Source: Pseudorhodobacter sp. PARRP1 (GTDB taxonomy: Bacteria > Pseudomonadota > Alphaproteobacteria > Rhodobacterales > Rhodobacteraceae). From it: 64,000 nucleotides of DNA. Where the stretch lies: positions 53,333-117,332 of the forward strand of contig NKIU01000008.1 in the NCBI GenBank assembly GCA_002256245.1, in the 5' to 3' direction. The position numbers and the translations under genes are program-made. Below the pieces are notes generated by a model. It saw only the letters and a program-made list of their open reading frames with translations, made no database searches and was not told where the DNA came from. Shown here in pieces: positions 23,774 through 62,797 of the stretch. Each line of letters opens with the position of its first letter. The stretch's first letter is position 1.

Positions 23774-23848
23774 GGTTAACAATTGGTGAACGACATTTCC
23801 CAAGTGCTTGAAATCGCACGGGGCAAATCCGGTCCCCGCTTGGGACCA
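23774..23848 (+). repeat. 75-bp GTTAA...GGTCCC-N5-GGGACCA element, copy 1
   Basis: ggttaacaattggtgaacgaca...gcttgaaat...ggtccccgcttgggacca; same length and motif layout as 44028-44102 and 62723-62797. Confidence 0.7.
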
Positions 23849-23951
23849 TGGCTTCACCCCACCCCCAAGGCCCCCACTCCAAGGCCCCCAACCCCAAGAC
23901 CCTTGCCGCCGCCCCCGCTTGCACTATCCTTGCCACAATCAAGGAGCCGCC

Positions 23952-24689
23952 ATGCCCCCCATCCTTCCCGCCAGCTTTCCCCCCATCCTGATCGCCGCCC
24001 ACGGCCAGCCATCAGACCCAGCACCCGCGAGCGCCGAACTCGCCCGGCTGGCGGCCGAGGTGGCCAGCCTGCTGCCCGGCCAGATCGTGACCTCTGCCAC
24101 CCTGGCCGAATCCGAGGCACTGGCGCAAGCCATCGCGCGCCTTGGCCCCGGCGGCCTGCTGTTTCCGATGTTCATGGCCGGGGGTTGGTTCACCCGCACC
24201 CATCTGCCCGCCCGCCTGACCGCCGCAGGCGCGCAGGGCTGGCAAGTGCTGGAACCGCTCGGCTGCCTTGCCACCCTGCACGACCTTGCCGTGCAGGTGA
24301 TCGCCCAGACGCGGACAAGCCATCCCGGCCCGGTGGTTCTGGCCGCACATGGGTCATTCAAAAGCAGCGTGCCCTCGGATATCGCCCAGCACTTGGCCGA
24401 GAAAATCCGCGCAGCACTCGGCTGCGAAGTGATCGCCGCGTTCATCGACCAGACACCGCAACTGGCCGATCTGCCCCCGCTTGGGAAGGATTCGGTCTGC
24501 CTGCCCTATTTCGCAGCCAGCGGCGGCCATGTCACCACCGACATCCCCGCAGCCCTCGCCCAGGCGGGCTTCAAAGGCACCCTGCTGCCCGCCCTCGGCC
24601 TGCGCCCGGAAATCCCCGGCCTGATCGCACAAGCCCTGCGCAGCCCAAGCCCGGTTTGCACGCAAGAATGTCGCTATAAACGCGGCTGA
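23952..24689 (+). CDS. CbiX/SirB-family chelatase (two-domain)
   Basis: IAAHG...ATL...PMFMAGGWF...LP, repeated as LAAHGS...AFIDQ...PYFAASGGHV..DIP; AAGGAG RBS before ATG 23952. Confidence 0.75.
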   Translation: MPPILPASFPPILIAAHGQPSDPAPASAELARLAAEVASLLPGQIVTSATLAESEALAQAIARLGPGGLLFPMFMAGGWFTRTHLPARLTAAGAQGWQVLEPLGCLATLHDLAVQVIAQTRTSHPGPVVLAAHGSFKSSVPSDIAQHLAEKIRAALGCEVIAAFIDQTPQLADLPPLGKDSVCLPYFAASGGHVTTDIPAALAQAGFKGTLLPALGLRPEIPGLIAQALRSPSPVCTQECRYKRG

Positions 24690-24715
24690 GGCGGCCCCTT
24701 GCGCAGACCGAAGCA

Positions 24716-24800
24716 GCCTCCGGCGGGGATATTTAGGCAGAGAGGATGACCAAAACCCGTCAACTTCATCTTGGCCTAAATACTCCCGCGCGGAGCGCAG
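24716..24800. repeat. Back-to-back pair of TCATC-N8-9-AAATA repeats (copies c and d)
   Basis: ggggatatttaggcagagaggatga (minus copy, 24716-24749) and ttcatcttggcctaaatactcccg (plus copy, 24764-24800) between convergent genes. Confidence 0.65.
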
Positions 24801-24815
24801 CCGACCTGTCCGCCC

Positions 24816-26213: not shown

Positions 26214-26214
26214 C

Positions 26215-31326: not shown

Positions 31327-32205
31327 TTATCGGGCCACATCCTTGTGAATGATCACATCGGTTTGCGGATAAGCCTCGAGAATGGCGCGGCGCAGGGCGG
31401 CCCCGATGTCATGCGCCTCGCGCAGGCTTTGCGCGCCATCCAACTCGATATGCAGATTGACGAACACCCGGCTGCCCGCCATGCGGGTTTTCAGATCGTG
31501 GTGGCCATGCACCCCCGGCCATTTGTCCGCAATCGCGGCAATGCCTGCGACGATGTCGGCATCCGCCGTGCGGTCCATCAGCGCATCGAACGCGCCCTTG
31601 CCGATGCGCAGCGCGCCCACCGCCATGATCGCCGCCGCCGTCAGCGCCACCACCGAGTCGATGCTGCCCAGACCAAAGCTTTTCGACGCCCAAAGCGAGA
31701 TGATCGCGCCCATGTTGGGCAACAGATCACCCATGTAATGCAAGCGGTCCGCCGCAACCACGCGGCTGCCGGTGCGCCGGGCCACACGGCCCTGCCACCA
31801 CACCAGCGCCACCGTCAGCGCCACCGACACGCCCATCACCAGCATGCCCTCGCCTTCGCCCACCAGATGCGCCTCGGATGGCCCCAGCAGCCGCGCGATA
31901 GAGGCCCAAGTGATCACCCCGGCCGAGATCAGGATGAAAAACGCCTGCCCCAACGCCGCCAGATCTTCGGCCGAGCTGTGGCCAAAGGCGTGATCTTCAT
32001 CCGCAGGTTTTGCCGCATAGATCAGCGCAGCCATCGCGCCCAACGACACCATCAGATCCATCGCGCTGTCCGCCAGCGACGCCGCGACAGAAAGCGATCC
32101 GGTTGTGCCATAGGCCCACAGCTTCAGCCCCACCATCACCGCAGCGATCGAGACCGAGGCCAGCCCCGCCGAGATGTTCAACTTCATGCTGTCGGCGGTG
32201 CTCAT
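31327..32205 (-). CDS. fieF: Cation diffusion facilitator (FieF/YiiP-like)
   Basis: SLADSAMD, DEDHAFGH, ADRLHYMGD, HDLKTR, LHIELD motifs. Confidence 0.85.
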   Translation of the reverse strand: MSTADSMKLNISAGLASVSIAAVMVGLKLWAYGTTGSLSVAASLADSAMDLMVSLGAMAALIYAAKPADEDHAFGHSSAEDLAALGQAFFILISAGVITWASIARLLGPSEAHLVGEGEGMLVMGVSVALTVALVWWQGRVARRTGSRVVAADRLHYMGDLLPNMGAIISLWASKSFGLGSIDSVVALTAAAIMAVGALRIGKGAFDALMDRTADADIVAGIAAIADKWPGVHGHHDLKTRMAGSRVFVNLHIELDGAQSLREAHDIGAALRRAILEAYPQTDVIIHKDVAR

Positions 32206-32292
32206 GGTTCGCTCCTTAAATCCGGCGCCGTTCTGTCTCTGATGAAACGCGGAGCCGCGCCCTAAACCCCAAGGCGAACCAGCGCAACCCGA

Positions 32293-32838
32293 TTAGTCGA
32301 TCACTTCGCCGGGATCGACACCCCAAAGTGCCGATTTCAAGATCCAGCCCTTTTCACCGCTTGCATTCACGCGGCACCAATCTGCGTTACATTCCAACAG
32401 CTTGGCGATCACCCCAAGCTCTGCCTGAAACGACACCCGCGCCTGCGCGTCCGGGCTGTCGCGAAATTCCGCCATATCTTGCGTCACCAGAACCGAGCGT
32501 GACCCCGACAGCAGGTTGAACTGCATCCAGCCGCCCATGCCCTGATAATCTTCCACCCGCCGCCAGCGGTCATATTCCGCCGTGATCCGCAAAGGCATGC
32601 CTGCGGTGGTGAACACCCAGTCGATGCGGTGCGTCATCCCCGGCCCGCGCCGCACATTGCCCTCGCGCCCTTTCAGGCTGACGTAACGCGGCAGCGGCAG
32701 GTTGGTGACGGGCCCCTTGTTCGGATCGCGCGGCGTCTTGCCGTCATTTGCCGGGGCCATCGGCAGTTCTTCCTGCGCGCCCGCCCGCGTGGCCAGCAAC
32801 GCCCCCGCCATTCCTGCCAAAAACTGCTTCCTGTTCAT
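32293..32838 (-). CDS. Bacterial SH3-domain protein
   Basis: LPLPRYVSLK, NVRRGPG, WRRVED, GWILKSALWGV; divergent from the 2-hydroxyacid dehydrogenase. Confidence 0.85.
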   Translation of the reverse strand: MNRKQFLAGMAGALLATRAGAQEELPMAPANDGKTPRDPNKGPVTNLPLPRYVSLKGREGNVRRGPGMTHRIDWVFTTAGMPLRITAEYDRWRRVEDYQGMGGWMQFNLLSGSRSVLVTQDMAEFRDSPDAQARVSFQAELGVIAKLLECNADWCRVNASGEKGWILKSALWGVDPGEVID

Positions 32839-32936
32839 CCCAAGCCGCCCCAATATCAGACGGGGGCTTGTGCGCGGCCCCGCTTCCCGCCACTTTGCCA
32901 AACATTACGCTGATTTGGAAGTGCAGGGAGGCCTCC

Positions 32937-33923
32937 ATGCCCGCAACACGCCTGAACGTTATCGTGACGCGCCGTTTGCCGGAACCCGTCGAGACCCGGA
33001 TGAAGGAGCTGTTCGATGTCGAGTTGCGCGACCCCGACACAGCCATGAGCCGTGAAGAACTGGCCGCCGCCCTGCGCCGCTGCGATGTGCTGGTGCCCAC
33101 CATCACCGACCAGATTGACGCGGGCCTGATCGCGCAGGCCGGAGAGCGGCTGAAACTGATCGCCAACTATGGCTCGGGCATTGACCATATTGATGTCGCA
33201 ACCGCCCGCCAACGCGGCATTCTGGTGTCAAACACCCCCGGCACGGTGACGGATGACACCGCCGATATGACGCTGGCGCTGATGCTGTCGGTCACCCGCC
33301 GCATCCCCGAGGGCCTCGCCGAAATGCAGGCGGGCAAGTGGCAGGGCTGGTCGCCGATGGCGCATCTGGGGGGCCGGATGGGCGGGCGGCGTCTGGGCAT
33401 CCTTGGCATGGGCCGCATTGGCCAAGCCGTCGCCCGCCGCGCCCGCGCCTTTGGCTGTCAGGTCCACTACCACAACCGCAAACGCGTCCGCCCCGAGATT
33501 GAAGCCGAGCTTGAGGCCACCTATTGGGACAGCCTTGATCAGATGATCGCCCGCATGGACATCATCAGCGTCAACTGCCCGCACACGCCCTCGACCTTCC
33601 ATCTGCTGAACGCACGGCGGCTGAAATTGCTGAAGCCGAAGGCGGTGATCATCAACACCTCGCGCGGGGAAGTGATCGACGAAAACGCCCTCGCACGTGG
33701 CCTGAAAGCCGGAGAGATCGGCGGCGCGGGCCTTGACGTTTATGAGCACGGCACCGAGATCAACCCCACCCTGCGCAGCCTGCCGAATGTGGTGCTCTTG
33801 CCCCACATGGGGTCTGCCACCATCGAGGGCCGGATCGAGATGGGCGAGAAAGTCATCATCAATATCAAGACCTTCGCCGACGGGCACAGGCCGCCAGATC
33901 AGGTCGTGCCGGGGATGCTGTAA
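32937..33923 (+). CDS. D-isomer-specific 2-hydroxyacid dehydrogenase (glyoxylate/D-glycerate type)
   Basis: GILGMGRIG, INTSRG, GLDVYE, LLPHMGS. Confidence 0.9.
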   Translation: MPATRLNVIVTRRLPEPVETRMKELFDVELRDPDTAMSREELAAALRRCDVLVPTITDQIDAGLIAQAGERLKLIANYGSGIDHIDVATARQRGILVSNTPGTVTDDTADMTLALMLSVTRRIPEGLAEMQAGKWQGWSPMAHLGGRMGGRRLGILGMGRIGQAVARRARAFGCQVHYHNRKRVRPEIEAELEATYWDSLDQMIARMDIISVNCPHTPSTFHLLNARRLKLLKPKAVIINTSRGEVIDENALARGLKAGEIGGAGLDVYEHGTEINPTLRSLPNVVLLPHMGSATIEGRIEMGEKVIINIKTFADGHRPPDQVVPGML

Positions 33924-33956
33924 AAGCCGCTTGGCCAAGTCCAAAGTTTTGACGTT

Positions 33957-34051
33957 CTTGCCCGATTTGTTCGAAAACAAATCGGGCCGCGCCTGCCTGC
34001 CCATGGGCAGGCGCGTTTCCGCGCCCACCCAGTCAGGCGCGCCCCGATTTC
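33957..34051 (-). repeat. ~94-bp structured dispersed repeat, copy 2
   Basis: Reverse complement of 21223-21316; lies 33 bp after the dehydrogenase stop. Confidence 0.85.
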
Positions 34052-34276
34052 CCAAACCGATGCTTGCTGCCCAACGCCCCTTGCTCAACGGCCTCCAGCC
34101 TTATGAGCAACGAACCGGAAAACTCTGCCCCGCAGAGTTTTCTTTCGGTTCGCAGTCACGCCCCTTTTGCATGTTGAATAGCACACCTCCCCCAACCTCT
34201 TTCCTGTGCCGGGTTGAAATGCCATCCGCGAAACCTTACCTGTCGCGCGATAACAACAACGTGAGCCGGGACATCA

Positions 34277-34936
34277 ATGGAAATTTTCACTCAGGCGGGC
34301 TTTATAGCCCTGCTTCAGGTCATGGGCATCGACTTGGTGCTTGCGGGCGACAACGCCATCGTGATTGGCCTTGCCGCCGCTGGCCTGCCGAAAGAGCAGC
34401 GCAATAAAGCCATTCTGGTGGGAATTTTGGCCGCAACGGTGATGCGGATCGGCTTTGCACTGATCACCACGCACCTGCTGGCGATTGTGGGCCTGCTACT
34501 GGCCGGGGGTGTGCTGCTGCTTTGGGTCTGCTGGAAAATGTGGCGCGAGCTGCAACAGGGCCACGGCACTGACAACATGGCCGAGGAATCGCTGACCGAC
34601 AGCGATCTGAACGCCGATGGCACCGTCGCCGGCGGTGCGCCGCGCAAGACCTTCGCGCAAGCCGCATGGCAGATCGTGATCGCCGATATCTCGATGAGCC
34701 TAGATAACGTGCTGGCCGTCGCCGGTGCCGCGCGCGAACATCCCACCGTGCTGGTGATCGGTCTGATCCTGTCGATTGCGCTGATGGGCCTTGCCGCCAC
34801 CTTCATCGCGCGCCTGCTGAACAAGCACCGCTGGATCGCCTATATCGGCCTTGCCATCATCGTCTATGTCGCGCTGAAAATGATGTGGGAAGGCTGGCAC
34901 GAGGTGCAGCCCTATGTGATGGCCTACCTGCAATAA
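34277..34936 (+). CDS. TerC family (YjbE-like) membrane protein
   Basis: DLVLAGDNAIVI, ADISMSLDNVLAVAGAA, IGLILSIALM. Confidence 0.9.
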   Translation: MEIFTQAGFIALLQVMGIDLVLAGDNAIVIGLAAAGLPKEQRNKAILVGILAATVMRIGFALITTHLLAIVGLLLAGGVLLLWVCWKMWRELQQGHGTDNMAEESLTDSDLNADGTVAGGAPRKTFAQAAWQIVIADISMSLDNVLAVAGAAREHPTVLVIGLILSIALMGLAATFIARLLNKHRWIAYIGLAIIVYVALKMMWEGWHEVQPYVMAYLQ

Positions 34937-34955
34937 GCCACGCAGTTACCGCAAC

Positions 34956-34985
34956 AAAACCGCCCCCGAAACGGGGCGGTTTTTT
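34956..34985. terminator. Bidirectional intrinsic terminator
   Basis: aaaaccgcccc-cgaaac-ggggcggtttttt after the terC stop. Confidence 0.85.
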
Positions 34986-35304
34986 ATTGCCAGCCGTGCC
35001 CGGCGCTTGGCAGGCGCTGGCAATTTGCAACGCTTGACCTTTCGCGCTGTTCGGGCGGCCAGATCGGCAAGACATGCCTGCCCCAAGGTTTCACCAAGGG
35101 CCGCAACGCGCAAACTGCGGCCCGGTTGGATGGCATCGCGGACGGCGTTAAGGTTGCGCCGCGCGCAAACCGTCACAGCGGGCACGGTCTGGGTTGGCCC
35201 GCGCCAACGCTGCGTGCTCTGTCCGGCAGCTTCGGGGCCCCCCACAAGTTCCGCATCTTGGCGATGCACGCCGATGATTGCCGCCAAAGCCCCTTGCGCC
35301 GGTG

Positions 35305-36924
35305 TCAGGATGCCAAATGCTCGAACAACCTTGCGACTGCCTCTGCCCCCGGATCAACGTGCCCGCTTAACTGATCGGCGTTGATATAGGTGCTGCGCCC
35401 GGCCTTTGCCGTGGTCAGCGTCGCGGTATAGTTGGCACCGTCGCGCGCCGCTTTTGCGGCATGGCCAAGGCCGTGGTCCAACGCATCCAAGGCGGGCAAC
35501 AACGCATCGACCATGGTGCGATCGCCCGGATTTGCCCCACCAATCTGGCGCATCCGCGCAAGGCCGGCTTGCAAGGCCTCGCGCATGGGCAGGCCGGATG
35601 CCGACGCATCGCCCGCGGCGGCAAAGAAGATGGCAAGCAACACCCCCGACGATCCGCCCATGGTCTGGCTCAGCTCAAGCCCGATGGCGCGGTAAAGCTG
35701 CGTGTGATCTGCCAAAGGCAGCGTATCCATCGCCTCGATCAGCGCGCGCGCAGCCCCGGCCAAAGTCGATCCTGTGTCGCCATCGCCAGATTTGGCATCA
35801 AGCAGGTTCAGATCGTCTTCAGCCGCAATCAGCGCCGCACAACAGCCGCGCAAAAAGGCTTTGGTGGGCGCATGGGCCGAGGCAGGCGCGCGGATGGGCG
35901 ACAACCCGTCTGGCAACGGCAGCACCTTGGCGGGCTGGATCTTGTGGCATCCCGGCCAGCCTTGGCATTGAACAGGTTGCGCCAACAGGGCTTGGTCGCC
36001 TTCACTCAACTCCATGACCGAAACCGAGAAGCCGTGCATATCCAGCGCCGTCATCATCGACGCGGGCCCCACGATCAGCCGGATGTGCCCGCCGATCCCC
36101 GAGGCAAGCAATTCATGCGTCAGGATCGACATTTCCAGAACCGACGCCGCGCCAAGGTTGTTGACCAAGGCGACATGCGGGGTCTTGGGCATGGTCGCGG
36201 CCAGCTTTGCGGTGACTTTGGCAAGCGCATCGCGGGCACCGCCCGAGGCGACCTGTTCAACGCCTGCCTCGCCGTGAATGCCCAGCCCCAACTCGGCCAT
36301 GCCATGCGGGATGCGGTCTTCCTTCAGCGACCCCGGAACGGTGCAGGTATCCAAGGACATGCCGATGCTGCGGCTGGCGTTGATCACCCTTTGCGCAGCC
36401 ATTGTGCAGGCCTCAAGGTTGGCGCCATTCTCAGCCATCGCGCCTGCGATCTTGTGGACAAACAGCGTGCCCGCCAGCCCGCGCGCTTGCGGCAGATCGG
36501 GCAGGGCCACGTCGTCATCGACGATCACCATGCTGACGCTTAGCCCAAACGCACGGGCGCGTTCTGCCGCCAGACCAAAATTCAGCCGGTCGCCGGTGTA
36601 ATTCTTCACGATCAGCAGACACCCCGCAGGCCCCGTCACCGCCAGAATGCCTGCCAGCACCGCATCGACAGAAGGCGAGGCAAACACATCACCGCAGACC
36701 GCAGCCGTCAGCATACCCGCCCCGACAAACCCCACATGCGCAGGCTCGTGTCCCGAGCCGCCGCCCGATACCAAAGCCACCTTGGATTTGGTCCAGTCGG
36801 CGCGCACGACGACGCGGATATGCGGATAGCCATCCAGACGCGCAATCGCCCCGCCCGATGCCGCAATAGCGCCGTCGATGGCTTCGGTCACCATGTCTTC
36901 TTTGGCATTGATGAACTGTTTCAT
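35305..36924 (-). CDS. dhaK: Dihydroxyacetone kinase, fused K+L (ATP-dependent type)
   Basis: SGGGSGHEP, KNYTGD, GLGIHGE (Dak1); GDGDTG, GGSSG, GDRTMVD, AGRS, DPGA (Dak2). Confidence 0.9.
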   Translation of the reverse strand: MKQFINAKEDMVTEAIDGAIAASGGAIARLDGYPHIRVVVRADWTKSKVALVSGGGSGHEPAHVGFVGAGMLTAAVCGDVFASPSVDAVLAGILAVTGPAGCLLIVKNYTGDRLNFGLAAERARAFGLSVSMVIVDDDVALPDLPQARGLAGTLFVHKIAGAMAENGANLEACTMAAQRVINASRSIGMSLDTCTVPGSLKEDRIPHGMAELGLGIHGEAGVEQVASGGARDALAKVTAKLAATMPKTPHVALVNNLGAASVLEMSILTHELLASGIGGHIRLIVGPASMMTALDMHGFSVSVMELSEGDQALLAQPVQCQGWPGCHKIQPAKVLPLPDGLSPIRAPASAHAPTKAFLRGCCAALIAAEDDLNLLDAKSGDGDTGSTLAGAARALIEAMDTLPLADHTQLYRAIGLELSQTMGGSSGVLLAIFFAAAGDASASGLPMREALQAGLARMRQIGGANPGDRTMVDALLPALDALDHGLGHAAKAARDGANYTATLTTAKAGRSTYINADQLSGHVDPGAEAVARLFEHLAS

Positions 36925-36936
36925 GGTCTCTCTCCC

Positions 36937-37932
36937 TTAGGCCAAGCGCGCGCCAGCGGCGTCAAAGTAGAATGCCTTGTTTGGACGAATTTTCACGATA
37001 TCGCCCTCTTTGAGCGTGGTATGTGCATCTGTGACGGTGATCAGACCGTGCGATTTCAGCGCCAGATGCAGGCGGGTCTGATCGCCAAGATGCTCGACGC
37101 GCTGCACAAAACTGTCTTCGCCTTCGCCTTGCAGGATATGTTCGGGCCGCAGCCCGATATGTGTGGCATTGCGCGGGGCACCACCAAACACATCGGCAGG
37201 CAGCACATTGATGCGCGGCTGGCCAAGGCGGCTGGCGGCATAGATGCTGACCGGATTTTCGTAAATCTCGCGCGGGCTGCCAAATTGCACCAAACGGCCC
37301 TTGTCCAGCACGCCGACATGGGTCGCCATCGTCATCGCCTCGATCTGGTCATGCGTCACATACAGCAGCGTGGCACCCGAATTGGCCTGAATGCTTTTCA
37401 ACTCGATGCGCAGATCCGACCGCAGCTTGGCATCCAGCGAACTGAGCGGCTCGTCCATCAGATAAACGGATGGGTTCCGCACCAAGGCCCGCCCGATCGA
37501 CACGCGCTGCATCTCGCCCCCCGAAAGTGCGGTGGCCTTGTTGTCCAGCTTGTGGCTGATCTGCAAAACCTCGGCCACCTCGGCGACCTTGCGGTCAATC
37601 TCGGCCTGAGGCGTGCGCAGGATCGGCGATTTCAGCGGAAACTCCAGATTTTGCCGCACCGTCAGATGCGGGTAAAGCGAGTATTGCTGAAACACCATCG
37701 CCACATCGCGCTGCGCAGGCGTCAGGCCCGATGCGTCCCGGCCCCCGATGCGCACCTGGCCCATATCCGGCCTGTCCAACCCCGACACCATCCGCAGCGT
37801 GGTGGTTTTGCCCGCACCCGTGGGGCCAAGCAAGACCACGAACGACCCATCCGGAATGGTCATCGACACATCCTCAAGCGCGGTCTGTTTGCCAAAGGAT
37901 TTGGATATCCCCGCAAGAACGACTTCAGCCAT
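36937..37932 (-). CDS. Carbohydrate ABC ATP-binding protein
   Basis: GPTGAGKTT, LSGGEMQR, LMDEP, VTHDQ. Confidence 0.9.
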   Translation of the reverse strand: MAEVVLAGISKSFGKQTALEDVSMTIPDGSFVVLLGPTGAGKTTTLRMVSGLDRPDMGQVRIGGRDASGLTPAQRDVAMVFQQYSLYPHLTVRQNLEFPLKSPILRTPQAEIDRKVAEVAEVLQISHKLDNKATALSGGEMQRVSIGRALVRNPSVYLMDEPLSSLDAKLRSDLRIELKSIQANSGATLLYVTHDQIEAMTMATHVGVLDKGRLVQFGSPREIYENPVSIYAASRLGQPRINVLPADVFGGAPRNATHIGLRPEHILQGEGEDSFVQRVEHLGDQTRLHLALKSHGLITVTDAHTTLKEGDIVKIRPNKAFYFDAAGARLA

Positions 37933-39022
37933 GTGCCAGCACTCCTTGATTTGCCTGCGAGCGCAGGGCCTTGCCGGATTTTGCGTCAAACAGCGTCACC
38001 GTGCGCGGATCAAACCGCAGCCCCGTGGTGGCCCCAACCCGCACCGCATCCGAACTTGGTGCGCGCGCCTTGATCACGCCATTCGGGGTTTCAAGCGTGA
38101 TGATCTGCGTCGTGCCCAGATATTCCGTGGCCTTCACCACGCCGCGATAGCCCGCGGCATCATCAAGCTGCACATGCTCGGGGCGCACGCCAAAGCTAAG
38201 GGCACCATTCGCGCCATCCAGACATTGCGGGATCGCCATTGCGATATCATTTAGCCGCACTTCGGTTGAACCGTTTCCGACCATGCCGTTGAAATCGAGG
38301 AAATTCATCGGCGGCGACCCAATGAACTGCGCCACGAACTTGGTCGCGGGCCAGTCGTAGATTTCCTGCGGCACGCCAAATTGTTCGACCACGCCGTGGT
38401 TCATCACCACAATCTTGTCGCCCATCTGCATCGCCTCCAGCTGGTCATGCGTGACATAAACCGTGGTCGCCCCCATCCGGTCATGCAGAGCGCGCAATTC
38501 CTCTGACATATGCTCGCGGAATTCGGCATCCAGCGCGCCCAACGGTTCGTCCATGAAGAACGCCTTGGGGTTGCGCACGATGGCGCGCCCCAGCGCCACG
38601 CGCTGCCGATCCCCGCCCGAAAGGCCACCAACCGGCTTTTTCAAAATGTCGGTGATGCCCAAAATCTCGGCGATCTCATCCACCTTCTTTTTCACCTGCG
38701 CTTTGGGCATGCCTTGCGAAACCAGCGGATAGCTGATGTTTTTGCCGACATTCATATGCGGGTAAAGCGCGAACATCTGGAACACAAAGGCGATGTCGCG
38801 CTGGCTTGCGGGCTTTTGCCCCACCTCTTCGCCGTCAATGTAAATCTCGCCCGAGGTCGGCAATTCCAGCCCCGCCATCATTCGCAAGGTGGTGGTTTTG
38901 CCGCAACCAGATGGGCCCAGCAGCATGAAAAACTCGCCGTCTTCAATGGTGAAGGTCGAGGATTTGACCGCATTGAACGACCCGAAATCCTTGCGCACGT
39001 TTTCAATTCTGATCTGTGCCAT
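37925..39022 (-). CDS. Carbohydrate ABC ATP-binding protein
   Basis: GPSGCGKTT, LSGGDRQR, FMDEP, VTHDQ. Confidence 0.92.
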   Translation of the reverse strand: MAQIRIENVRKDFGSFNAVKSSTFTIEDGEFFMLLGPSGCGKTTTLRMMAGLELPTSGEIYIDGEEVGQKPASQRDIAFVFQMFALYPHMNVGKNISYPLVSQGMPKAQVKKKVDEIAEILGITDILKKPVGGLSGGDRQRVALGRAIVRNPKAFFMDEPLGALDAEFREHMSEELRALHDRMGATTVYVTHDQLEAMQMGDKIVVMNHGVVEQFGVPQEIYDWPATKFVAQFIGSPPMNFLDFNGMVGNGSTEVRLNDIAMAIPQCLDGANGALSFGVRPEHVQLDDAAGYRGVVKATEYLGTTQIITLETPNGVIKARAPSSDAVRVGATTGLRFDPRTVTLFDAKSGKALRSQANQGVLAHG

Positions 39023-39025
39023 GGG

Positions 39026-39214
39026 CTACTCCGGGAAATGGCTGACGATGATGAACATCACCGTGCCGACAAGGGTGACAATGAAGGAATAGCTGTAAAG
39101 CCCGATGGCAAAGGGCTGCATCAGCATGAAAACACCCAGCGCAATCAGGATGGTTGCCAGCATTTCCCAAGGGCCACGGCGCAGGCGCAAAAGACCGCTT
39201 ACAATGTTCCTCAT
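39026..39214 (-). CDS. Small (62 aa) two-TM membrane protein within the ABC operon
   Basis: MRNIVSG...WEMLATILIALGVFMLMQPF...FIVTLVGTVMFIIVSHFPE; ATGA-coupled to the permease, 3 nt before the ATPase. Confidence 0.75.
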   Translation of the reverse strand: MRNIVSGLLRLRRGPWEMLATILIALGVFMLMQPFAIGLYSYSFIVTLVGTVMFIIVSHFPE

Positions 39215-40149
39215 TTGCGCACCGCCCCGAATGTAATGCCCCGCAGCAGGTGCTTGCGCAGCATGATGGTGAACACCATGACCGGGACGAGGAATATCGT
39301 GGCCCCCGCTGCAACCGCCGGCCAATCCTTGCCGCCAGTGCCGATGATGGTGGGAATGAAGGGCGGCGCGGTTTGCGCGGTGCCCGAGGTCAGCAGCACC
39401 GCAAAGGCATATTCGTTCCACGCAAAGATCAGGCAAAAAATCGCGGTCGAGGCGATGCCCGTGGCCGCTTGCGGCAGCACAACCTTGTAAAACGCCTGAA
39501 ACCGCGTGTAGCCGTCGATCAGGGCCGCTTCTTCATATTCAATCGGAATCTCGTCGATAAAACCTTTCAGCAACCAGACCGAAAGCGAAAGGTTAACCGC
39601 CGTGTAAAGCAGGATCATGCCAAGATGCGTGTCGTTCAGGCCCAGATTGCGGAACATCAGAAAGATCGGAATAGCGACTGCAATCGGCGGCATCATCCGG
39701 GTGGACAGGATGAAAAACAGCAGATCATCCTTCAGCGGCACCTTGAAGCGGCTGAACGCATAGGCCGCAGCCGTGCCCAGCACCATGCACAGCGCGGTCG
39801 AGCCAAATCCGATGATCACCGAATTCAGAAACCGCTGACCATAGCGCGACGGGCCCGAGATAACCGTGCCGCGATCGCGCGCGATCTGGTCATACCAGGT
39901 GGTCGGCGGCCCTGCGGCGGCAAGCATCTCATCTGTCGCCCGGGTGCGTTCGGTGAACAGGTTGACATAGCCTTCAAGCGTGGGCTGAAACACCACAACG
40001 GGCGGGTAGGCGATTGAATCTGTGGGGGATTTGAACCCGGTGGCGATGATCCACAAAAGCGGGATCAGGGTGATGATCGCATAGCTGACCACCAAAACTC
40101 CGGCCAACCATTTGGTGCCTTTGCTTGGTTCTGTGACGGAATAGCTCAT
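39211..40149 (-). CDS. Carbohydrate ABC permease
   Basis: EEAALIDG motif, FAWNEY. Confidence 0.9.
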   Translation of the reverse strand: MSYSVTEPSKGTKWLAGVLVVSYAIITLIPLLWIIATGFKSPTDSIAYPPVVVFQPTLEGYVNLFTERTRATDEMLAAAGPPTTWYDQIARDRGTVISGPSRYGQRFLNSVIIGFGSTALCMVLGTAAAYAFSRFKVPLKDDLLFFILSTRMMPPIAVAIPIFLMFRNLGLNDTHLGMILLYTAVNLSLSVWLLKGFIDEIPIEYEEAALIDGYTRFQAFYKVVLPQAATGIASTAIFCLIFAWNEYAFAVLLTSGTAQTAPPFIPTIIGTGGKDWPAVAAGATIFLVPVMVFTIMLRKHLLRGITFGAVRK

Positions 40150-41093
40150 CTTTCTTTCACCTTGTTCAGGGCTTTGACATAGATCGACGCAAGGCCGAAC
40201 ACGGTGACAAACAGCATAACGGCATAGGCAGACGAATATCCTGTCCGCCATTTCTCAAACGCCTCGCGCTTAAGGTCGATCGAGGTCAGGGTGGTGGTAT
40301 TGCCCGGCCCACCGCCCGTAAGCTGCACCACAAGGTCAAACATCTTGAAATTCTCAATGCCGCGAAACAACACCGCCAGCATCAAAAACGGCAGCGCCAT
40401 CGGCAGGGTAATGGTCCAGAACTGACGCCACGCACTCGCACGGTCACATTCGGCGGCCTCATAGATACTGTCAGGAATAGACCGCAGCCCCGCGAGGCAA
40501 ATCAGCATCACAAACGGCGTCCACATCCAGGTGTCAGCAATGATGATCGCCCAAGGTGCCAGGTTCACATCGCCAATCATCGAAAAACTGGCAGGGTCCG
40601 CGCCGGTCAGAAACTCGACCACATAGTTGAACAGACCAATCTGCGGCTGATACAAAAACGTCCAGAAATTGCCCACCACAGCCGGAGACAGCATCATCGG
40701 AAACACGATGATCGTGGTCCACATGTCATTGCCACGGAATTTCTTGTTGATCAGAAACGCCAGCGCAAACCCGATCAGAACCTGCAACGTGATGGTCCAG
40801 ATCAGGAAATGCGCCGTCGCCTGCATGGTCTGCCAAACCGTTGGATCGCTCAGAATGCGGCGGTAATTTTCCAACCCCACCCATTCGACGGCATTGTTCG
40901 GGCGATTGACCCGAAAGTTGGTAAAACTCAGCCGGATGGTCCAGATCAGCGGAAAGATGTTGACGGCCAACAACAAAAAGATCGTCGGCGCCACGAAAAT
41001 CCACGCGATGGTGCGATCAGACAACCCACGGATTTTGCGCGCGATACCGTCAGGCGTTGCCGCCGCAACCCGTGTGAGGGGGGATAAGCTCAT
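40146..41093 (-). CDS. Carbohydrate ABC permease
   Basis: DTWMWTPF, IYEAAECD, GGGPG. Confidence 0.9.
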   Translation of the reverse strand: MSLSPLTRVAAATPDGIARKIRGLSDRTIAWIFVAPTIFLLLAVNIFPLIWTIRLSFTNFRVNRPNNAVEWVGLENYRRILSDPTVWQTMQATAHFLIWTITLQVLIGFALAFLINKKFRGNDMWTTIIVFPMMLSPAVVGNFWTFLYQPQIGLFNYVVEFLTGADPASFSMIGDVNLAPWAIIIADTWMWTPFVMLICLAGLRSIPDSIYEAAECDRASAWRQFWTITLPMALPFLMLAVLFRGIENFKMFDLVVQLTGGGPGNTTTLTSIDLKREAFEKWRTGYSSAYAVMLFVTVFGLASIYVKALNKVKER

Positions 41094-41224
41094 ATCTTGA
41101 TTTCCTTCAAACGCCGCCCGGTTGTGGACGGCGGAGGTCGTTCAACGGAAAGCTCCTCTGGCCGAACGCGGGTTCAGCCAGAGGCAAGGTCAGACACCGT
41201 CTTGCAGATGTGCGACGGGCAGGC

Positions 41225-42547
41225 TTACAGCTTGCCCTCATCTGTGAAGATCTTTGTCCAATCCTGAACAACCCCATCCAGCGCCTCTTTTGCGGTGCCT
41301 TGCCCGGCGACAACATAGTTGTGCATCCGCTCCTGCATCGCCAGCAACAGATCGGCATAGGCGGGCTCGGCCCAGAAATCCTTCACGATGGCCATGCTAT
41401 CAAGGAAGGTCTGCGCATAGGGCTGGCTGCTGGCAAAGCCCGGATCATTGACCACCGCATTCAGCGCGGAATAGCCGCCAAGTTTCCACCATTGCGTCTG
41501 CACGCTCGGCTGGGCAAACCACTTGATATAGTCAAGCGCCGCCTGCTGGTGATCCGAGTTTGCAACCACCGAAATCCCTTGACCACCAAGCTGGGCAAAC
41601 TGGCCCGCGGGGCCGGCCGGATTTGCGAAATAGCCCGATTTGCCACCGCCGACATTCGGATCAGATTCAACCCCCGGCCACACGAAAGCAAAGTTCATCT
41701 GAAGCGCCACCTGACCCGATTTATAGGCGTCGATGTCTTCGCCCATATACCAGTTCGAGGATCCCGGAGGCGTCGCGGTGTCATAGAGGCTCTTGTAAAA
41801 CTCAAGCCCCGCCACCGCGCCGTCCGAGTTTACAAAGCCCTCAAGATCATAGGGTTTTGCCGGGTTTTCATACTGAAACCCATAGTTATAAAGCGCATTG
41901 GTCACGCCCATCGTGATGCCTTCCGACCCGCGCTCGGTATAGATCGCGGCGCCGTAAACGGTCTTGCCGTCAATATCGCGACCCTGGAAGAATTGTGCAA
42001 TGTCGCGCAGCTCCTCCAAGGTAGCCGGAACGCCAAGGTCGCGGCCATATTTGGTTTTGAACTCTGCCTGAATTTCGGGGCGATCAAACCAGTCTTTGCG
42101 ATAGGTCCAGCCCACCACATCGCCAAACGCAGGCAAGGCGTAATAGTTGGGCGTGCCCTTGGGCCATTCGGCATAGCCCGTCACCGTCGCCGGGATGAAA
42201 TCTGCCATCTTGATGCCATTGGCATCGAAAAAGTCGTTCAGTTTCAGATACTGGCCGTTCTCCGCCGCACCACCGATCCACTGGCTGTCACCGATCAGCA
42301 GGTCGCAAAGCTTGCCGCCCGAATTCAGCTCGTTCAACATGCGGTCGGCAAAGTTCGGCCACGGCACGAATTCGAAATGCATGGTGTTGCCCGATTGCTT
42401 TTCGAAGTCCTTGCTCAACTCGATCAGCGCATTGGCCGGGTCCCAGGCAGCCCAGCACAGGGTCAGATCTTCGGCCTGCGCAGCCGAAGACAGCCCGCCG
42501 ACAAGCAAAGCGCCAGCGGCAGCCGTCATCATCAGGTTCATCTTCAT
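41225..42547 (-). CDS. Carbohydrate ABC substrate-binding protein
   Basis: Signal peptide, GGAG RBS, cluster-B SBP features. Confidence 0.88.
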   Translation of the reverse strand: MKMNLMMTAAAGALLVGGLSSAAQAEDLTLCWAAWDPANALIELSKDFEKQSGNTMHFEFVPWPNFADRMLNELNSGGKLCDLLIGDSQWIGGAAENGQYLKLNDFFDANGIKMADFIPATVTGYAEWPKGTPNYYALPAFGDVVGWTYRKDWFDRPEIQAEFKTKYGRDLGVPATLEELRDIAQFFQGRDIDGKTVYGAAIYTERGSEGITMGVTNALYNYGFQYENPAKPYDLEGFVNSDGAVAGLEFYKSLYDTATPPGSSNWYMGEDIDAYKSGQVALQMNFAFVWPGVESDPNVGGGKSGYFANPAGPAGQFAQLGGQGISVVANSDHQQAALDYIKWFAQPSVQTQWWKLGGYSALNAVVNDPGFASSQPYAQTFLDSMAIVKDFWAEPAYADLLLAMQERMHNYVVAGQGTAKEALDGVVQDWTKIFTDEGKL

Positions 42548-42618
42548 TCGGTTTCTCCTCCCACGGATTTTTCCAGGCTCAGCTTTTGCGCCGCACCTTG
42601 TCGTGCAACAACTGTTAA

Positions 42619-42666
42619 TGAGGCACGTGCCTCAAAGCAAGTTATTTTTGAGACACGTGCCTCAAA
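42619..42666. promoter_or_regulatory. Twin LacI-family operators
   Basis: TGAGGCACGTGCCTCA (perfect, 42619-42634) and TGAGACACGTGCCTCA (42649-42664), 30 bp apart, between the SBP gene and the divergent LacI gene. Confidence 0.8.
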
Positions 42667-42765
42667 CCTTGCTAGCTTGGCAGGGCGCGCGCAGAACGGC
42701 TGCGTTGAAGGTCGCCAAAACTATGATAGTAAGGGGAAAATACAAAAGTGATCTTGCTGGAACCG

Positions 42766-43788: not shown

Positions 43789-44027
43789 CCCGCGCTTGGT
43801 GCGCGTCAGCCTAGCCCAAGCCCGCATGGCGGCTTCGGGGCAGTTTGGTGCAGCGTGCCGCCAAAGCGCATCGTCGGGCAACAGCGCCGTTCCGATAGAT
43901 TGCCCATCGAATTTCCGGGGCCAAAAGGTGAAACCTTCCATCGCCCGGAACCATCCCTGCCGCGCCTGCCCTTGCGTGCGCGCAGCCCTTTGCTTGGCGT
44001 GGGTCGGGCGGGCGCATCGCTGCCAAA

Positions 44028-44102
44028 CGTTAAAAATTCGTTAAAATGACAGGGCTATCCTATTGTTTTTGCTGAAACAAATTTGGTCCCGAGTTGGGAC
44101 CA
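44028..44102 (+). repeat. 75-bp GTTAA...GGTCCC-N5-GGGACCA element, copy 2
   Basis: cgttaaaaattcgttaaaatgaca...ctattgtttt...ggtcccgagttgggacca; contains a perfect TTAA-N7-TTAA. Confidence 0.7.
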
Positions 44103-60786: not shown

Positions 60787-60826
60787 GCAGCAGCGCGGCC
60801 CCTTGGCAGGGCCGCGCCTTTGGAAA

Positions 60827-62458
60827 TCACTGGTCTTTGTAGTTCACCGATTTCTTGTCGCTGTCTGGTGCCGATTTGGTCCGGCGTACGATCAACTTGT
60901 TCAGCGCGTTGACATAGGCTTTCACGCTTGCCACCACGGTATCGGTATCCGCCGAGGCCCCGGTGACGATGCGGCCTTCTTCTTCCATCCGCACCGAAAC
61001 CGTCGCCTGCGCGTCGGTGCCTTCGGTCACGGCTTGCACCTGATACAGTTGCAACCGTGCGCTGTGTGGGAACAGCATTTTCACCGCATTGAACGCCGCA
61101 TCCACCGGGCCATCGCCTGTGGCATCAACCGAGTGATCCACCCCCTCGATGGTCAGCGTCAACTCTGCCTCACGCGGGCCTTCGGTGCCGCAAACCACGC
61201 GCAGGCGTTTGACCTGAATGGTGTCATGCGCGTCATTGGTGGCTTCATCGGCGACGAGGGCCAACAAATCCTCGTCATAGACCTCTTTCTTGCTGTCGGC
61301 CAAAGCCTTGAAGCGCACGAACACGTCGTTCAACTGATTGTCGGCCAATTCATAGCCGAGTTCCTTCAGCTTTGAGCGCAGCGCAGCGCGGCCCGAGTGT
61401 TTGCCCATCGAGATGTTATGCGCGTTCAGGCCGATGTCGGCGGGGCGCATGATCTCGAAGGTTTCGATGTTTTTCAGCACGCCATCCTGATGGATGCCGG
61501 ACTCGTGCAGGAAGGCATTCTTGCCGACGATGGCCTTGTTGAACTGCACCGCAAAGCCCGACACCGAGGAAACCCGACGCGACAGGTTCATGATCTTGGT
61601 GGTGTCGATCTGGGTGCGGTAGGGCATGATGTCGTTCCTGACCTTCATCGCCATCACGACTTCTTCCAACGCGGTGTTGCCCGCGCGTTCGCCCAAACCG
61701 TTGATGGTGCATTCGATCTGCCGCGCGCCAGCCTCAACCGCGGCGAGGGAGTTCGCCGTCGCCATCCCCAAATCGTTGTGGCAATGGGTGGCAAAGATCA
61801 CCCCATCCGCCCCCGGCACGCGTTCCAGCAGCATACGGATCAGGTCAGCGGATTCGCGCGGCGCGGTGTAGCCGACGGTGTCGGGGATGTTGATGGTGCT
61901 GGCCCCGGCCTTGATCGCGATTTCGACCACGCGGCAGAGGTAATCATGTTCCGTCCGCGTCGCATCCATCGCCGACCATTGCACGTTGTCGCACAGGTTG
62001 CGGGCGTGGGTGACGGTGTCGTGGATGCGGGTGGCCATCTGATCCATATCAAGGTTCGGGATGGCGCGGTGCAGCGGCGAGGTGCCGATGAAGGTGTGGA
62101 TGCGCGGGCTGGCCGCGTGTTTCACGGCCTCCCAGCAGCGATCAATGTCTTTGTAATTGGCGCGCGCAAGGCCGCAGATGGTGGAGTTTTTCGAGCGCTT
62201 TGCGATCTCAGTCACGGCGGCGAAATCGCCTTCGGAGGCGATGGGAAAGCCCGCCTCGATCACATCGACGCCCATTTCATCCAGCAGGCTGGCGATTTCC
62301 AGCTTTTCGTCGTGGGTCATGGTGGCGCCGGGCGATTGCTCGCCGTCGCGCAGGGTGGTGTCGAAGATGATGACTTTGGGCTGAGATTGCGCCTTTTCGG
62401 CGCGGGCGGGCTGCGATTTAGCGGCTTCGGCGCGGGTTTGCGCGGGCGTGGCGGTCAT
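60827..62458 (-). CDS. leuA: 2-isopropylmalate synthase
   Basis: FDTTLRDGEQ, EAGFP, HCHNDLG, GLGERAGN, HESGIHQDG, GKHSG, C-terminal regulatory domain. Confidence 0.97.
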   Translation of the reverse strand: MTATPAQTRAEAAKSQPARAEKAQSQPKVIIFDTTLRDGEQSPGATMTHDEKLEIASLLDEMGVDVIEAGFPIASEGDFAAVTEIAKRSKNSTICGLARANYKDIDRCWEAVKHAASPRIHTFIGTSPLHRAIPNLDMDQMATRIHDTVTHARNLCDNVQWSAMDATRTEHDYLCRVVEIAIKAGASTINIPDTVGYTAPRESADLIRMLLERVPGADGVIFATHCHNDLGMATANSLAAVEAGARQIECTINGLGERAGNTALEEVVMAMKVRNDIMPYRTQIDTTKIMNLSRRVSSVSGFAVQFNKAIVGKNAFLHESGIHQDGVLKNIETFEIMRPADIGLNAHNISMGKHSGRAALRSKLKELGYELADNQLNDVFVRFKALADSKKEVYDEDLLALVADEATNDAHDTIQVKRLRVVCGTEGPREAELTLTIEGVDHSVDATGDGPVDAAFNAVKMLFPHSARLQLYQVQAVTEGTDAQATVSVRMEEEGRIVTGASADTDTVVASVKAYVNALNKLIVRRTKSAPDSDKKSVNYKDQ

Positions 62459-62532
62459 GGGATCGTTCCTTGGTGTTTGTTGCTGCTTTCCGGGCGCTGA
62501 TCACTTCCGAGCGGTCGCACCCAAGGGCACGC

Positions 62533-62625
62533 TCAGAAGCGGGTAAGAAGCAGCAGGCCACGGGAAAGCGACGCGCCGGAATTGGGCGCGGTGTGGGTAA
62601 AGGCGATGATGGTTTCCCGTGTCAT
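62533..62625 (-). promoter_or_regulatory. leuA leader peptide (Leu-sensing attenuator)
   Basis: 30-codon ORF MTRETIIAFTHTAPNSGASLSRGLLLLTRF with CTG CTG CTT CTT near its end, 74 nt upstream of leuA. Confidence 0.78.
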
Positions 62626-62722
62626 GGCCGTGACTATACGGCGGATTTACTGGAAGGGAAGGGGGTGGCGGTGAAAAAGTAGCAGGGCTGCGGGCCTGCA
62701 CCGGGGCGGGGGATTTGCGGTG

Positions 62723-62797
62723 TGGTCCCAACTCGGGACCTTTTTCGAGTGTTTGTTTTCAATGGGTTAAGGGGGTGTCGTTTAGGATGTGTTAACC
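62723..62797 (-). repeat. 75-bp GTTAA...GGTCCC-N5-GGGACCA element, copy 3
   Basis: Minus strand: ggttaacacatcctaaacgaca...cccattgaaa...ggtcccgagttgggacca. Confidence 0.7.

Follow-up and report, generated by a model that had tools for sequence, protein, structure and literature searches.

Three intergenic sites in the 64-kb window (by which the whole stretch of DNA analyzed is meant) belong to a family of polar, ~80-bp repeats that is dispersed between the genes in about 100 copies in the genome, and at each copy a domain of leading-strand-like composition begins, independently of gene orientation. As every copy stands at the onset of a long strand-biased stretch, the elements probably mark the start sites of an unknown DNA-processing event. 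The family is an old one, retained at orthologous loci with its motifs and their spacing under purifying selection, and no description of it was found in the literature searched, in line with an earlier note on this DNA, whose author did not recognize the sites as a described element.

The repeat family and its copies in the window

The element consists of three modules: a TTAA-N7-T(T/G/A)AA direct repeat matching the CtrA-box consensus, an IHF-type core (WATCAA-N4-TTR) beside an A/T tract, and a GC-rich, lineage-specific palindrome. All three window copies agree with the description in the earlier note, the TTAA starting in each exactly 55 nt before GGTCCC-N5-GGGACC, with TTG(A/T) in between, and, the motif columns being constant in an ungapped alignment of ~89 copies anchored on the palindrome (TTAA at -55..-52 and -44..-41, TTGAT at -22..-18), the fixed spacing holds on this wider scale as well. 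Of the 75-bp length given at that time, the fixed geometry stands, while the element itself is slightly longer (~80 bp, conservation extending from CAAA at -61 to about +21); the AA(C/T)GACA word is there as a feature of a subfamily, not of the whole family; and the “CtrA-like box” is, at the level of sequence, a match to the TTAA-N7-TTAA consensus. Conserved and free positions together reproduce the IHF consensus as a sequence match in paralogues and orthologues alike, and the palindrome is flanked by an A/T run and ACCCC, its GGTC being paired inside the stem. No second hairpin was found in the TTAA box, where Watson-Crick pairs occur at chance rate without covariation, and the box is thus a direct repeat.

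Copy 1 (23774..23848, + strand in the box-to-palindrome direction, minor subfamily) has an APH-family gene (-) on one side and a CbiX-like gene (+) on the other, and its palindrome GGTCCC-CGCTT-GGGACC (23831..23847, from the pattern search) adjoins an ATG at 23849; the direct-repeat box, placed by the family alignment columns, is TTAA-N7-TGAA (23776..23790, +), and the IHF-type core (23801..23813, -) reads TTTCAAGCACTTG on the - strand, its sole mismatch to WATCAA-N4-TTR being T for A of WATCAA. Copy 2 (44028..44102, +, major subfamily) is the one that had been said to lie between convergent genes, and a LacI-type regulator (+) and a DAO oxidoreductase (-) do indeed converge on it, the stop of the latter (44105-45346, -) being located 3 nt before the palindrome GGTCCC-GAGTT-GGGACC (44085..44101, likewise from the pattern search), which was scored as terminator-like on the - strand. 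Its box (44030..44044, +) is the full CtrA-type consensus TTAA-N7-TTAA, and the position of the IHF-type core (44056..44068, -) holds a weak match, TTGTTT instead of TTGATW. Copy 3 (62723..62797, - in the box-to-palindrome direction), flanked by a LeuA-like gene (-) and an SDR gene (+), has the box TTAA-N7-TAAA (62781..62795, -), an IHF-type core (62757..62769, +) reading TTTCAATGGGTTA on the + strand, again with T for A of WATCAA as the sole mismatch, and a palindrome (62724..62740) after which the + strand continues with TTTTT. Copies 1 and 3 thus lie between divergent genes and copy 2 between convergent ones. Three matches to the palindrome pattern (at most one mismatch) in the window compare with 0.28 expected, and at least three were seen in 0 of 100 shuffles.

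The genome as a whole contains GGTCCC-N5-GGGACC hairpins in 89 exact copies and 99 matches to the profile, all of them intergenic and falling into minor and major subfamilies, and the reversed control pattern gave 0 matches. Copies are spaced ~35 kb apart, more evenly than chance would have it (CV 0.69 vs. 0.94+-0.09 for the null, P=2e-4). The TTAA-box side faces a gene 3' end in 63/99 copies and a gene 5' end in 36/99, with 44/99 copies placed between convergent genes, while close pairs of elements, counted in two genomes, are divergent (10) or tandem (12) and never convergent (0). Flanking proteins are unrelated between copies, whereby the element being the end of some larger repeated unit was rejected.

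In 52/89 copies the palindrome follows a stop codon at a distance of 0-12 nt, and 54/89 have an A-run (four or more A among the six bases preceding the palindrome when read box-to-palindrome), which is a T-run after the palindrome on the other strand. The opposite run is seen in 16/89 by the same count, and about 28% of the copies have T-runs in place of A-runs before the palindrome, so a terminator role would not be universal. Given the stop-adjoining palindrome in most copies and the T-run in ~60%, a role at the upstream mRNA end, which the palindrome would terminate or stabilize, is probable.

The palindrome in its GGTCCC form is characteristic of a Cypionkella subclade (the exact sequence occurs at most four times per genus in 150 other genera of the same family), and other Paracoccaceae genera harbor sister families having the box and IHF layout in common and different palindromes. 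Sister-family matches number 43 in G170, 106 in G041, 15 in G060, 12 in G012 and 11 in G118, against 0-2 in the controls. The palindrome types encountered are GGTCCC-N5-GGGACC, TGTCCACGCGTGGACA, GCGTCCGAGCTCGGACGC and TTGGGCAACTTGCCCAA, and even orthologous copies can differ in type. Copy number within a single genus ranges from 0 to 89, indicating lineage-specific expansion.

The element is retained at 53/58 syntenic loci, and in 48 orthologous pairs (flank identity 85%) the spacers are 0.3-0.5 identical, which is about random, with the TTAA blocks at 0.85-0.96; it is this retention of motifs and spacing while the spacers randomize that argues for purifying selection. The earlier proposal of a fixed-geometry site for several proteins, rather than a mere promoter of the neighboring gene, agrees with these findings, the TTAA repeat, the IHF core and the palindrome all being conserved at invariant spacing. 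Points going beyond that note are the existence of a ~100-copy polar family, the assignment of the central TTGA to an IHF-type core, and the GC-skew steps at the elements.

Strand composition around the elements

On the element strand, G exceeds C and T exceeds A over a stretch that begins ~1.5 kb short of the palindrome and reaches 12-25 kb past the TTAA box. GC skew is ~0 at -12..-3 kb, rises to +0.13 to +0.20 in the last kb, stays at +0.07 to +0.13 over 0-12 kb and decays by 20-30 kb, whereas random gene 3' ends, used as a control, give a flat profile. Downstream skew is positive for 77/82 elements, compared with 48/82 upstream (Wilcoxon 1e-11). The same holds for a second genus, G041 (39/40 positive downstream, P=3e-10), on whose complete chromosome the sign of the skew alternates with element direction every few tens of kb, and five loci of G060 show the same direction more weakly. 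A sawtooth model built from the elements explains ~40% of the genome-wide local GC skew (r=0.63 vs. 0.20+-0.07 for random orientations). The three window copies show modest steps only: at copy 2 (C5:97433), the - strand skew is +0.062 over the 12 kb ahead in the palindrome-to-box direction (32000..44027) and +0.135 over the 1.5 kb lying behind its palindrome, a domain weaker than the family average.

Gene orientation was rejected as the cause of the skew, GC3 skew on the element strand being practically the same in the 421 co-oriented (+0.173) and the 443 anti-oriented genes (+0.167) and the gene 3' end control being flat. Replication direction, as something the elements might merely be oriented by, was rejected likewise: skew sign and element direction alternate together over tens of kb with ~0 skew behind the elements, and such alternation on a complete chromosome cannot reflect true fork direction. 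No replichore-scale skew was visible. Orthologous genes have a skew of +0.15 to +0.18 in element-bearing genomes and of +0.03 to +0.05 in five element-free members of the genus, a comparison which, the element-free relatives forming one clade, counts phylogenetically as one contrast only. Skew and element are linked by correlation, and some third factor could be responsible for the orientation as well as for the skew. For the skew to be positive on either side of the element, the process must have two parts, one acting over a short range behind it and the other over a long range ahead, and no known type of site accounts cleanly for both by itself.

Two further points concern the skew. A ~4-kb periodicity of the downstream skew, such as would be expected from a GTA headful, was considered and not adopted, the binned profiles of two genomes showing, by eye, weak agreement only. 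A second palindromic family in the same genome, unrelated-looking, is accompanied by a similar skew step.

Resemblance to known sites and competing readings

The reading we favor, although our confidence in it is evenly balanced, is that of a REP/BIME(RIP)-like nucleoprotein site which starts or directs a one-directional process exposing ssDNA, the proteins and the mechanism being inferred. IHF would introduce a bend between two bound proteins, one specific for the palindrome and one sitting on the TTAA repeat (CtrA or a different binder of tandem sites), and a processive, one-directional DNA transaction would start at, or be directed by, the element with one strand exposed as ssDNA, candidates being nick- or break-initiated repair or displacement synthesis and an entry site of the cos/pac or oriT kind; recurring in the course of evolution, such a transaction would write the sawtooth GC skew.

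A close parallel is the BIME-1/RIP of E. coli (RIB; REP - IHF site - REP), which is also a high-copy extragenic unit with a GC-rich palindrome and an IHF consensus at a fixed distance (here a sequence match), often found, like our element, where a gene ends or where two genes converge. Unlike BIME-1/RIP, where two inverted REPs surround the IHF site, the element has one palindrome, the other arm being the TTAA-N7-TTAA direct repeat, and the palindrome has been swapped between lineages with the IHF and box part kept. We know of no description of BIMEs having a polarity tied to GC-skew steps. As to REPs in the narrower sense, the element is a high-copy, extragenic, short imperfect palindrome, lacking the unpaired GTAG/CGTC tag at the palindrome end by which such REPs, including Neisseria dRS3 and Rickettsia RPE, are defined (Di Nocera et al. 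2013, PMC3733652). GTAG/CGTC REPs are likewise short palindromic intergenic repeats, common in Alphaproteobacteria and near or overlapping gene ends (PMC3733652), and some sister palindromes start with CGTC or TGTC (G041 GCGTCCGAG..., type B TGTCCACG...); the stem of our element, though, is 6 bp compared with their 8-9 bp and without A/T first pairs, its tetranucleotide is paired inside the palindrome instead of forming a tag, and the whole forms a composite of 80 bp whose geometry is fixed.

That these are just passive REP/BIME-like repeats, selfish or structural, acting at most as terminators or IHF sites, is unlikely but the most serious of the alternatives. The skew would then be a by-product, e.g., of repeats being inserted or retained with a strand bias relative to a compositional domain that was already there. 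REP/BIME dynamics are called to mind by the copy number, the location outside genes, the palindrome, the subfamilies and the 0-89 copies within a genus, CGTC-type REPs of Alphaproteobacteria do without a dedicated transposase, too (PMC3733652), and the second palindromic family mentioned above comes with its own step. Passive repeats, however, would be hard to reconcile with ~0 skew behind and high skew ahead, which is a sawtooth and not a block of co-oriented elements, with the alternation of sign that fork direction cannot account for, with the orthologous genes of element-free relatives being without the skew, and with motif blocks under selection at a more regular spacing than random.

A more specific version of the favored reading, which we consider doubtful, takes the elements for dispersed cos/pac- or oriT-like entry sites of a host-domesticated DNA-mobilizing or break-repair machine, e.g., CtrA-controlled GTA packaging and uptake. 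The analogy is one of architecture only: phage lambda cos (cosN - I1 IHF site - R sites), pac and plasmid oriT (inverted repeat/nic - IHF - accessory-protein repeats) have the same module order as the element, i.e., a symmetric cleavage/recognition sequence, an IHF bend and repeated protein-binding sites, and launch a polar, processive event toward the repeated-site side, the very side on which our skew domain lies, whereas they are single-copy sites on a mobile genome as opposed to ~100 chromosomal copies here. Module order and one-sided skew domain are consistent with a polar entry site of this type. The palindrome would be cut or nicked, IHF and the TTAA-repeat binder would anchor the machine, processing would run in one direction for 10-25 kb, and C>T changes would build up on the strand that is time and again exposed or imported as ssDNA; local GC skew in these Paracoccaceae would then come mainly from ~100-170 sites and not from oriC-to-ter replication. 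GTA packaging in D. shibae is non-random, with no motif found there (PMC5786225). Chi and KOPS, too, are chromosomal signals that occur dispersed and depend on their orientation, which is correlated with the composition of the strand; they are, by contrast, 8-mers in ~1000 copies with replichore polarity, and the element is an 80-bp composite about every 35 kb with the local skew following each site and not the replichore.

Local control of replication, with the skew recording a real but locally set replication direction, seems improbable. The elements would be unidirectional secondary initiation sites or polar fork barriers, divergent pairs amounting to bidirectional origins, and the CtrA-type box, IHF site and A/T tract do recall alphaproteobacterial origins such as that of Caulobacter, just as skew jumps followed by decay are reminiscent of the skew domains at origins, close pairs are never convergent and the replichores leave no visible skew of their own. 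The family column profile, on the other hand, shows no DnaA-box conservation, ~100 origins per bacterial chromosome would be unprecedented, and positive skew throughout the 1.5 kb behind the element misfits a unidirectional origin.

Mobile-element readings are very improbable, be it decayed MITEs, solo transposon ends or REPs moved by a RAYT (an IS200/IS605-type Y1 transposase). The family is dispersed with subfamilies, IHF sites beside terminal repeats are common at transposon ends, and in G041, G012 and G118 the palindrome half-site recurs within or close to the TTAA box. Yet the consensus has no terminal inverted repeats and no boundary/length combination gave a target-site duplication signal, on which grounds MITEs were rejected. 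The search for clean empty sites yielded just an imprecise indel of ~130 bp at locus L011 (at locus L054 the position is taken by another palindromic repeat, that of family 2); most copies are fixed at orthologous positions, and the genes between divergent element pairs are of the housekeeping kind (ArgE-like, MurD, HisC-like). The single Y1/HUH-like gene of the genome (G000:C28:59480-59992) has no flanking palindromes, and its homologue is missing in G041, G060 and G012, which are rich in elements, and occurs in G153, G163 and G169, which have none, so that the RAYT/REPtron option was rejected. No candidate enzyme emerged.

Equally improbable is the reading that CtrA binds the box to drive a short RNA or a neighboring gene: the box fits TTAA-N7-TTAA(C) as known from promoters and origins in Alphaproteobacteria, orthologues retain both of its half-sites and over a third of box sides do face a gene 5' end, but most copies, with their box sides at gene 3' ends or between convergent genes, are not at the -35 position upstream of a gene as in CtrA promoters, no conserved -10 lies at a usable distance, the repeats hold far more of the TTAA-N7-TTAA matches of the genome (106/154 strand matches, 69%) than a regulon would need, and transcription cannot account for GC3 skew being equal in both gene orientations over >12 kb. 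The promoter for small RNAs suggested in the earlier note likewise finds no support, given these placements, the palindromes closely following stop codons, and 0 Rfam matches at the gathering score; read box-to-palindrome, moreover, there is an A-run before the hairpin and not a U-run after it. A sigma-70 promoter was rejected in either direction, as the consensus has no hexamer pair at workable spacing, and so was a tRNA/tmRNA, a thought prompted by the 75-nt length and CCA-like end (ARAGORN, 0 genes).

Implications for genome organization

Should the link between elements and skew hold, strand asymmetry in this group of common aquatic Alphaproteobacteria would be organized by dispersed polar repeats, not by two replichores, and predicting origin and terminus from GC skew would be invalid in their genomes. 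There would exist a frequent, site-directed, unidirectional DNA transaction, previously undescribed, be it repair synthesis, transfer, packaging or local initiation, and for REP/BIME-like repeats, about whose function there have been questions ever since they were discovered, evolution would have left a footprint of function that can be read. As the repeats hold about two-thirds of the TTAA-N7-TTAA sites of the genome, motif-based predictions of CtrA regulons will be swamped by them, and, if CtrA binds them, the repeats could also titrate it.

Copies, modules and genomic setting

The three stretches that the earlier note had singled out, copy 1 at 23774-23848 (+), copy 2 at 44028-44102 (+) and copy 3 at 62723-62797 (-), hold up as described, with TTAA exactly 55 nt ahead of GGTCCC-N5-GGGACC in each; the palindrome pattern is seen three times in the window versus 0.28 expected, and neither a tRNA nor a match to an Rfam family was found at the three sites. 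They belong to a polar, modular repeat family that is under selection, shows lineage-specific palindromes and is regularly spaced. The source genome (G000; 4.35 Mb, 61.8% GC, with the window at C5:53333-117332) has 89 exact palindromes and no occurrence of the reversed control pattern, and a profile made from these 89 retrieves 99 copies, all 99 of which are intergenic relative to our own gene calls (from a home-made codon-usage caller, of which the raw-skew results are independent). Elsewhere in the bacterial family, the palindrome does not exceed four copies per genus in 150 other genera, and the exact 22-mer AAAAAGGTCCCGAGTTGGGACC has over 100 occurrences among Cypionkella species and MAGs close to them, which makes the source organism a Cypionkella or something near to it.

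The consensus of an ungapped, palindrome-anchored alignment, read from box to palindrome, is CAAAcGTTAAaAAatCCTTAAAtccACcaCcccAACCctTTGATTTaaAAcaAtaAAAAAa-GGTCCCGAGTTGGGACC-ACCCC. In the opposite, palindrome-to-box direction, the modules are the palindrome, a T-run with an A/T tract, WATCAA-N4-TTR, which is the IHF consensus, and TTAA-N7-TTAAC, the full CtrA-type consensus, both being matches at the sequence level. The arms of the apparent palindrome at the TTAA box pair no more commonly than by chance, which rules out a hairpin and makes the box a direct repeat such as protein sites have. Two subfamilies are seen: a major one (loop GAGTT, 64 copies) and a more diverged minor one, including copy 1, with flipped or variant loops and the box TTAAC-N6-TGAACG. 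The G000 family shows no detectable terminal inverted repeats or target-site duplications.

A gene 3' end lies on the palindrome side of 70 of the 99 copies, 44 being placed between convergent and 10 between divergent genes. An open frame 100 or more codons long stops 0-12 nt ahead of the palindrome in 52/89 copies, and a T-run past the palindrome on that strand gives 54/89 a terminator-like shape (the 16/89 with the opposite run are equally near stop codons); mRNA 3'-end formation is a likely secondary role of the element. Copy 2 comes 3 nt after the stop of a DAO oxidoreductase gene and is scored as a terminator, and copies 1 and 3 are flanked by divergent genes (APH-family (-) and CbiX-like (+); LeuA-like (-) and SDR (+), respectively). 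The proteins flanking different copies are unrelated to one another. An ATG immediately follows the palindrome of copy 1 (23849); the CbiX-like ORF may truly begin there rather than at 23808, within the copy, where the longest-ORF call has it start. Two copies 7 kb apart (C27:105581 and C27:112740) have near-identical upstream flanks of ~90 nt, suggesting that a segmental duplication carried the element along with the gene end.

Along the chromosome, copies are more even than random intergenic placement (spacing CV 0.69 vs. a null of 0.94±0.09, P=2e-4; spacings below 8 kb, 9.5% vs. 19% expected), with the mean spacing being ~35 kb both in G000 and in G041, a genome of a different genus. Close pairs comprise 8 tandem, 2 divergent and 0 convergent ones in G000, and 4, 8 and 0, respectively, among those listed for G041. 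Divergent pairs 1.5-2.2 kb apart (back-to-back pairs at G041:C1 396287/398401, 1728480/1730020 and 2043317/2045060, and at G000:C24:405054/407248) enclose one or two housekeeping genes.

Age, selection and exchanged palindromes

Of 58 loci from other Cypionkella species for which both flanks map together in G000, 53 have the element in G000 as well. Across 48 orthologous pairs (85% identity over the alignable flanks), spacer columns show an identity of 0.3-0.5, barely over random paralogue pairs, both TTAA blocks show 0.85-0.96, and the IHF core is graded according to its consensus (specified positions 0.71-0.92, degenerate W 0.46, N4 0.42-0.62), with the spacing between modules being invariant. 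Such conserved blocks at constant spacing argue that purifying selection is acting on what appear to be protein-recognition blocks held in a fixed geometry; conservation of the palindrome and A-run is biased, as the loci were found via these parts.

The GGTCCC palindrome is limited to a part of the genus (0-89 copies across 25 members). The pattern TTAA-N7-TDAA-N17-19-TTGA, 56 of whose 58 matches in G000 fall in elements, recurs elsewhere, with another palindrome standing at an equal distance in G170, G041, G012 and G118: 43 hits vs. 2 for the control in G170 of the same genus (palindrome TGTCCACGCGTGGACA) and, in other genera, 106 vs. 1 in G041 (GCGTCCGAGCTCGGACGC), 15 vs. 1 in G060, 12 vs. 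0 in G012 (TTGGGCAACTTGCCCAA) and 11 vs. 0 in G118 (TGTCCACGCGTGGACA). The 7-nt spacer between the TTAA words nearly copies the palindrome half-site in G041, G012 and part of the G118 copies (GTCCAAG, GGGCAAG, GTCCACG). Orthologous copies of G170 and G000 (loci L107, L125, L149 and L141) have the box and IHF core in common and differ in their palindromes, so the palindrome module evolves in concert across loci. Around 11 G000 copies of the box and IHF element (e.g., C5:13584, C5:50098, C10:560808, C16:35647 and C7:131128) carry GTCCACGCGTGGAC, the type predominating in G170 and G118, and two palindrome types thus coexist in one genome. A separate second family in G000 (65 copies, e.g., outside the window, C5:146931, C5:146956, C7:103752-103829 and C24:287078) consists of the palindrome GTCCCCGCGGGGAC, frequently lengthened to CACAAGTCTGTCCCCGCGGGGACAGACTTGTG, and a CCACAA-N4-TTGTGG module ~40-60 nt away.

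Elements are tied to one-sided domains of leading-strand-like composition

The association is tight and replicated. With GC skew taken on the palindrome-to-box strand and "downstream" meaning beyond the box, the element strand is the G-rich one in 77/89 copies (±5-kb window) and in 62/77 8-kb loci of other species. The averaged G000 profile is a sawtooth: mean skew is ~0 from -12 to -3 kb, climbs to between +0.13 and +0.20 within the final kb ahead of the palindrome, dips to +0.07 at the element itself, stays at +0.07 to +0.13 for 12 kb past it and has fallen to between +0.03 and +0.05 at 20-30 kb, with AT skew moving towards T>A across the same stretch; random gene 3' ends, the control, are at 0 apart from +0.04 over the final kb. 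Taken one by one, 77/82 elements have positive skew downstream, against 48/82 upstream (paired Wilcoxon 1e-11). Downstream skew is also positive in 5/5 testable GTCCACGCGTGGAC-type copies, and the second family, oriented palindrome-to-module, goes from -0.01 behind to +0.05 ahead (24/31 positive, P=8e-4).

Transcription is excluded as the cause by the third-codon-position skew, which at 0-12 kb downstream is equal for co-oriented (+0.173, n=421) and anti-oriented genes (+0.167, n=443), the upstream values (-12 to -3 kb) being +0.034 and -0.003; the asymmetry is thus independent of transcription direction and resides at mostly synonymous sites. Regional skew is common to plus- and minus-strand genes (r=0.86 across bins). 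A sawtooth model, a sum to which each of 139 oriented elements from the two families adds an exponential decay (20-30 kb), follows the 5-kb-bin skew of the whole of G000 with r=0.63-0.64 and a sign agreement of 93%; with random orientations, r is 0.20±0.07 (maximum 0.39 in 1000 trials).

The complete 4.15-Mb chromosome of G041, with its different palindrome, shows the same shape (-0.01, then +0.14, +0.066, and +0.06 to +0.15; positive downstream in 39/40, upstream in 18/40, P=3e-10). Every few tens of kb its plus-strand skew flips sign, following the direction of the elements, an alternation that excludes ordinary replication polarity as the cause. Replichore-scale skew is visible neither in G041 nor in G000, where sign blocks measure tens to hundreds of kb. 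At divergent pairs, plus-strand skew would turn from negative into positive, resembling the signature of an origin. Five loci of G060, a third genus, show the predicted sign weakly across the first ~5 kb. For genes downstream of three strong elements, skew is +0.15 to +0.18 in G000 and +0.18 for the orthologues in the element-bearing relative G151, versus +0.03 to +0.05 in five element-free genus members, which form one clade and so amount phylogenetically to a single contrast.

Possible nature of the element and its consequences

Among known elements, the nearest counterparts are E. coli BIME-1/RIP and CGTC-type alphaproteobacterial REPs, the latter, as here, being without a dedicated transposase (PMC3733652). 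The G000 element, however, lacks the second inverted REP of BIME-1/RIP and the unpaired GTAG/CGTC tag of REPs, and its stems are 6 bp, where GTAG/CGTC-tagged REPs have 8-9 bp. No RAYT gene flanked by the repeats was found in G000, whose single HUH/Y1 (RAYT-like) transposase-family gene (C28:59480-59992 (-), 170 aa; Pfam Y1_Tnp, 22.7 bits) has none of them beside it, and RAYT-like proteins and repeats do not co-occur across the genomes compared. The literature searched gives no account of the repeat family or of repeat-anchored skew sawteeth; D. shibae GTA packaging, mentioned for context only, is non-random and without a motif (PMC5786225).

On mechanism, here and throughout, we infer: the element would be a nucleoprotein site similar in kind to REP/BIME-1 (RIP), one that launches or directs a processive process running one way, with the palindrome-to-box strand left single-stranded. 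Cytosine deamination in single-stranded DNA is the standard account of G>C and T>A on an exposed strand. The short rise behind and the long tail ahead could reflect one resected end together with displacement or break-induced-type synthesis. A cos/pac- or oriT-like entry site might fit equally; the element mimics the order of modules in such sites, where a symmetric site is followed by IHF and then by repeated binding sites, towards which processing runs.

Of the 154 TTAA-N7-TTAA strand matches in G000, 106 (69%) lie inside repeats, which, if CtrA binds, are likely to serve secondarily as a large pool of CtrA sites, and repeat copies would dominate motif-based prediction of the CtrA regulon in the genus. 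Skew-based origin/terminus prediction would, moreover, fail in G000 and G041, because skew sign flips in blocks.
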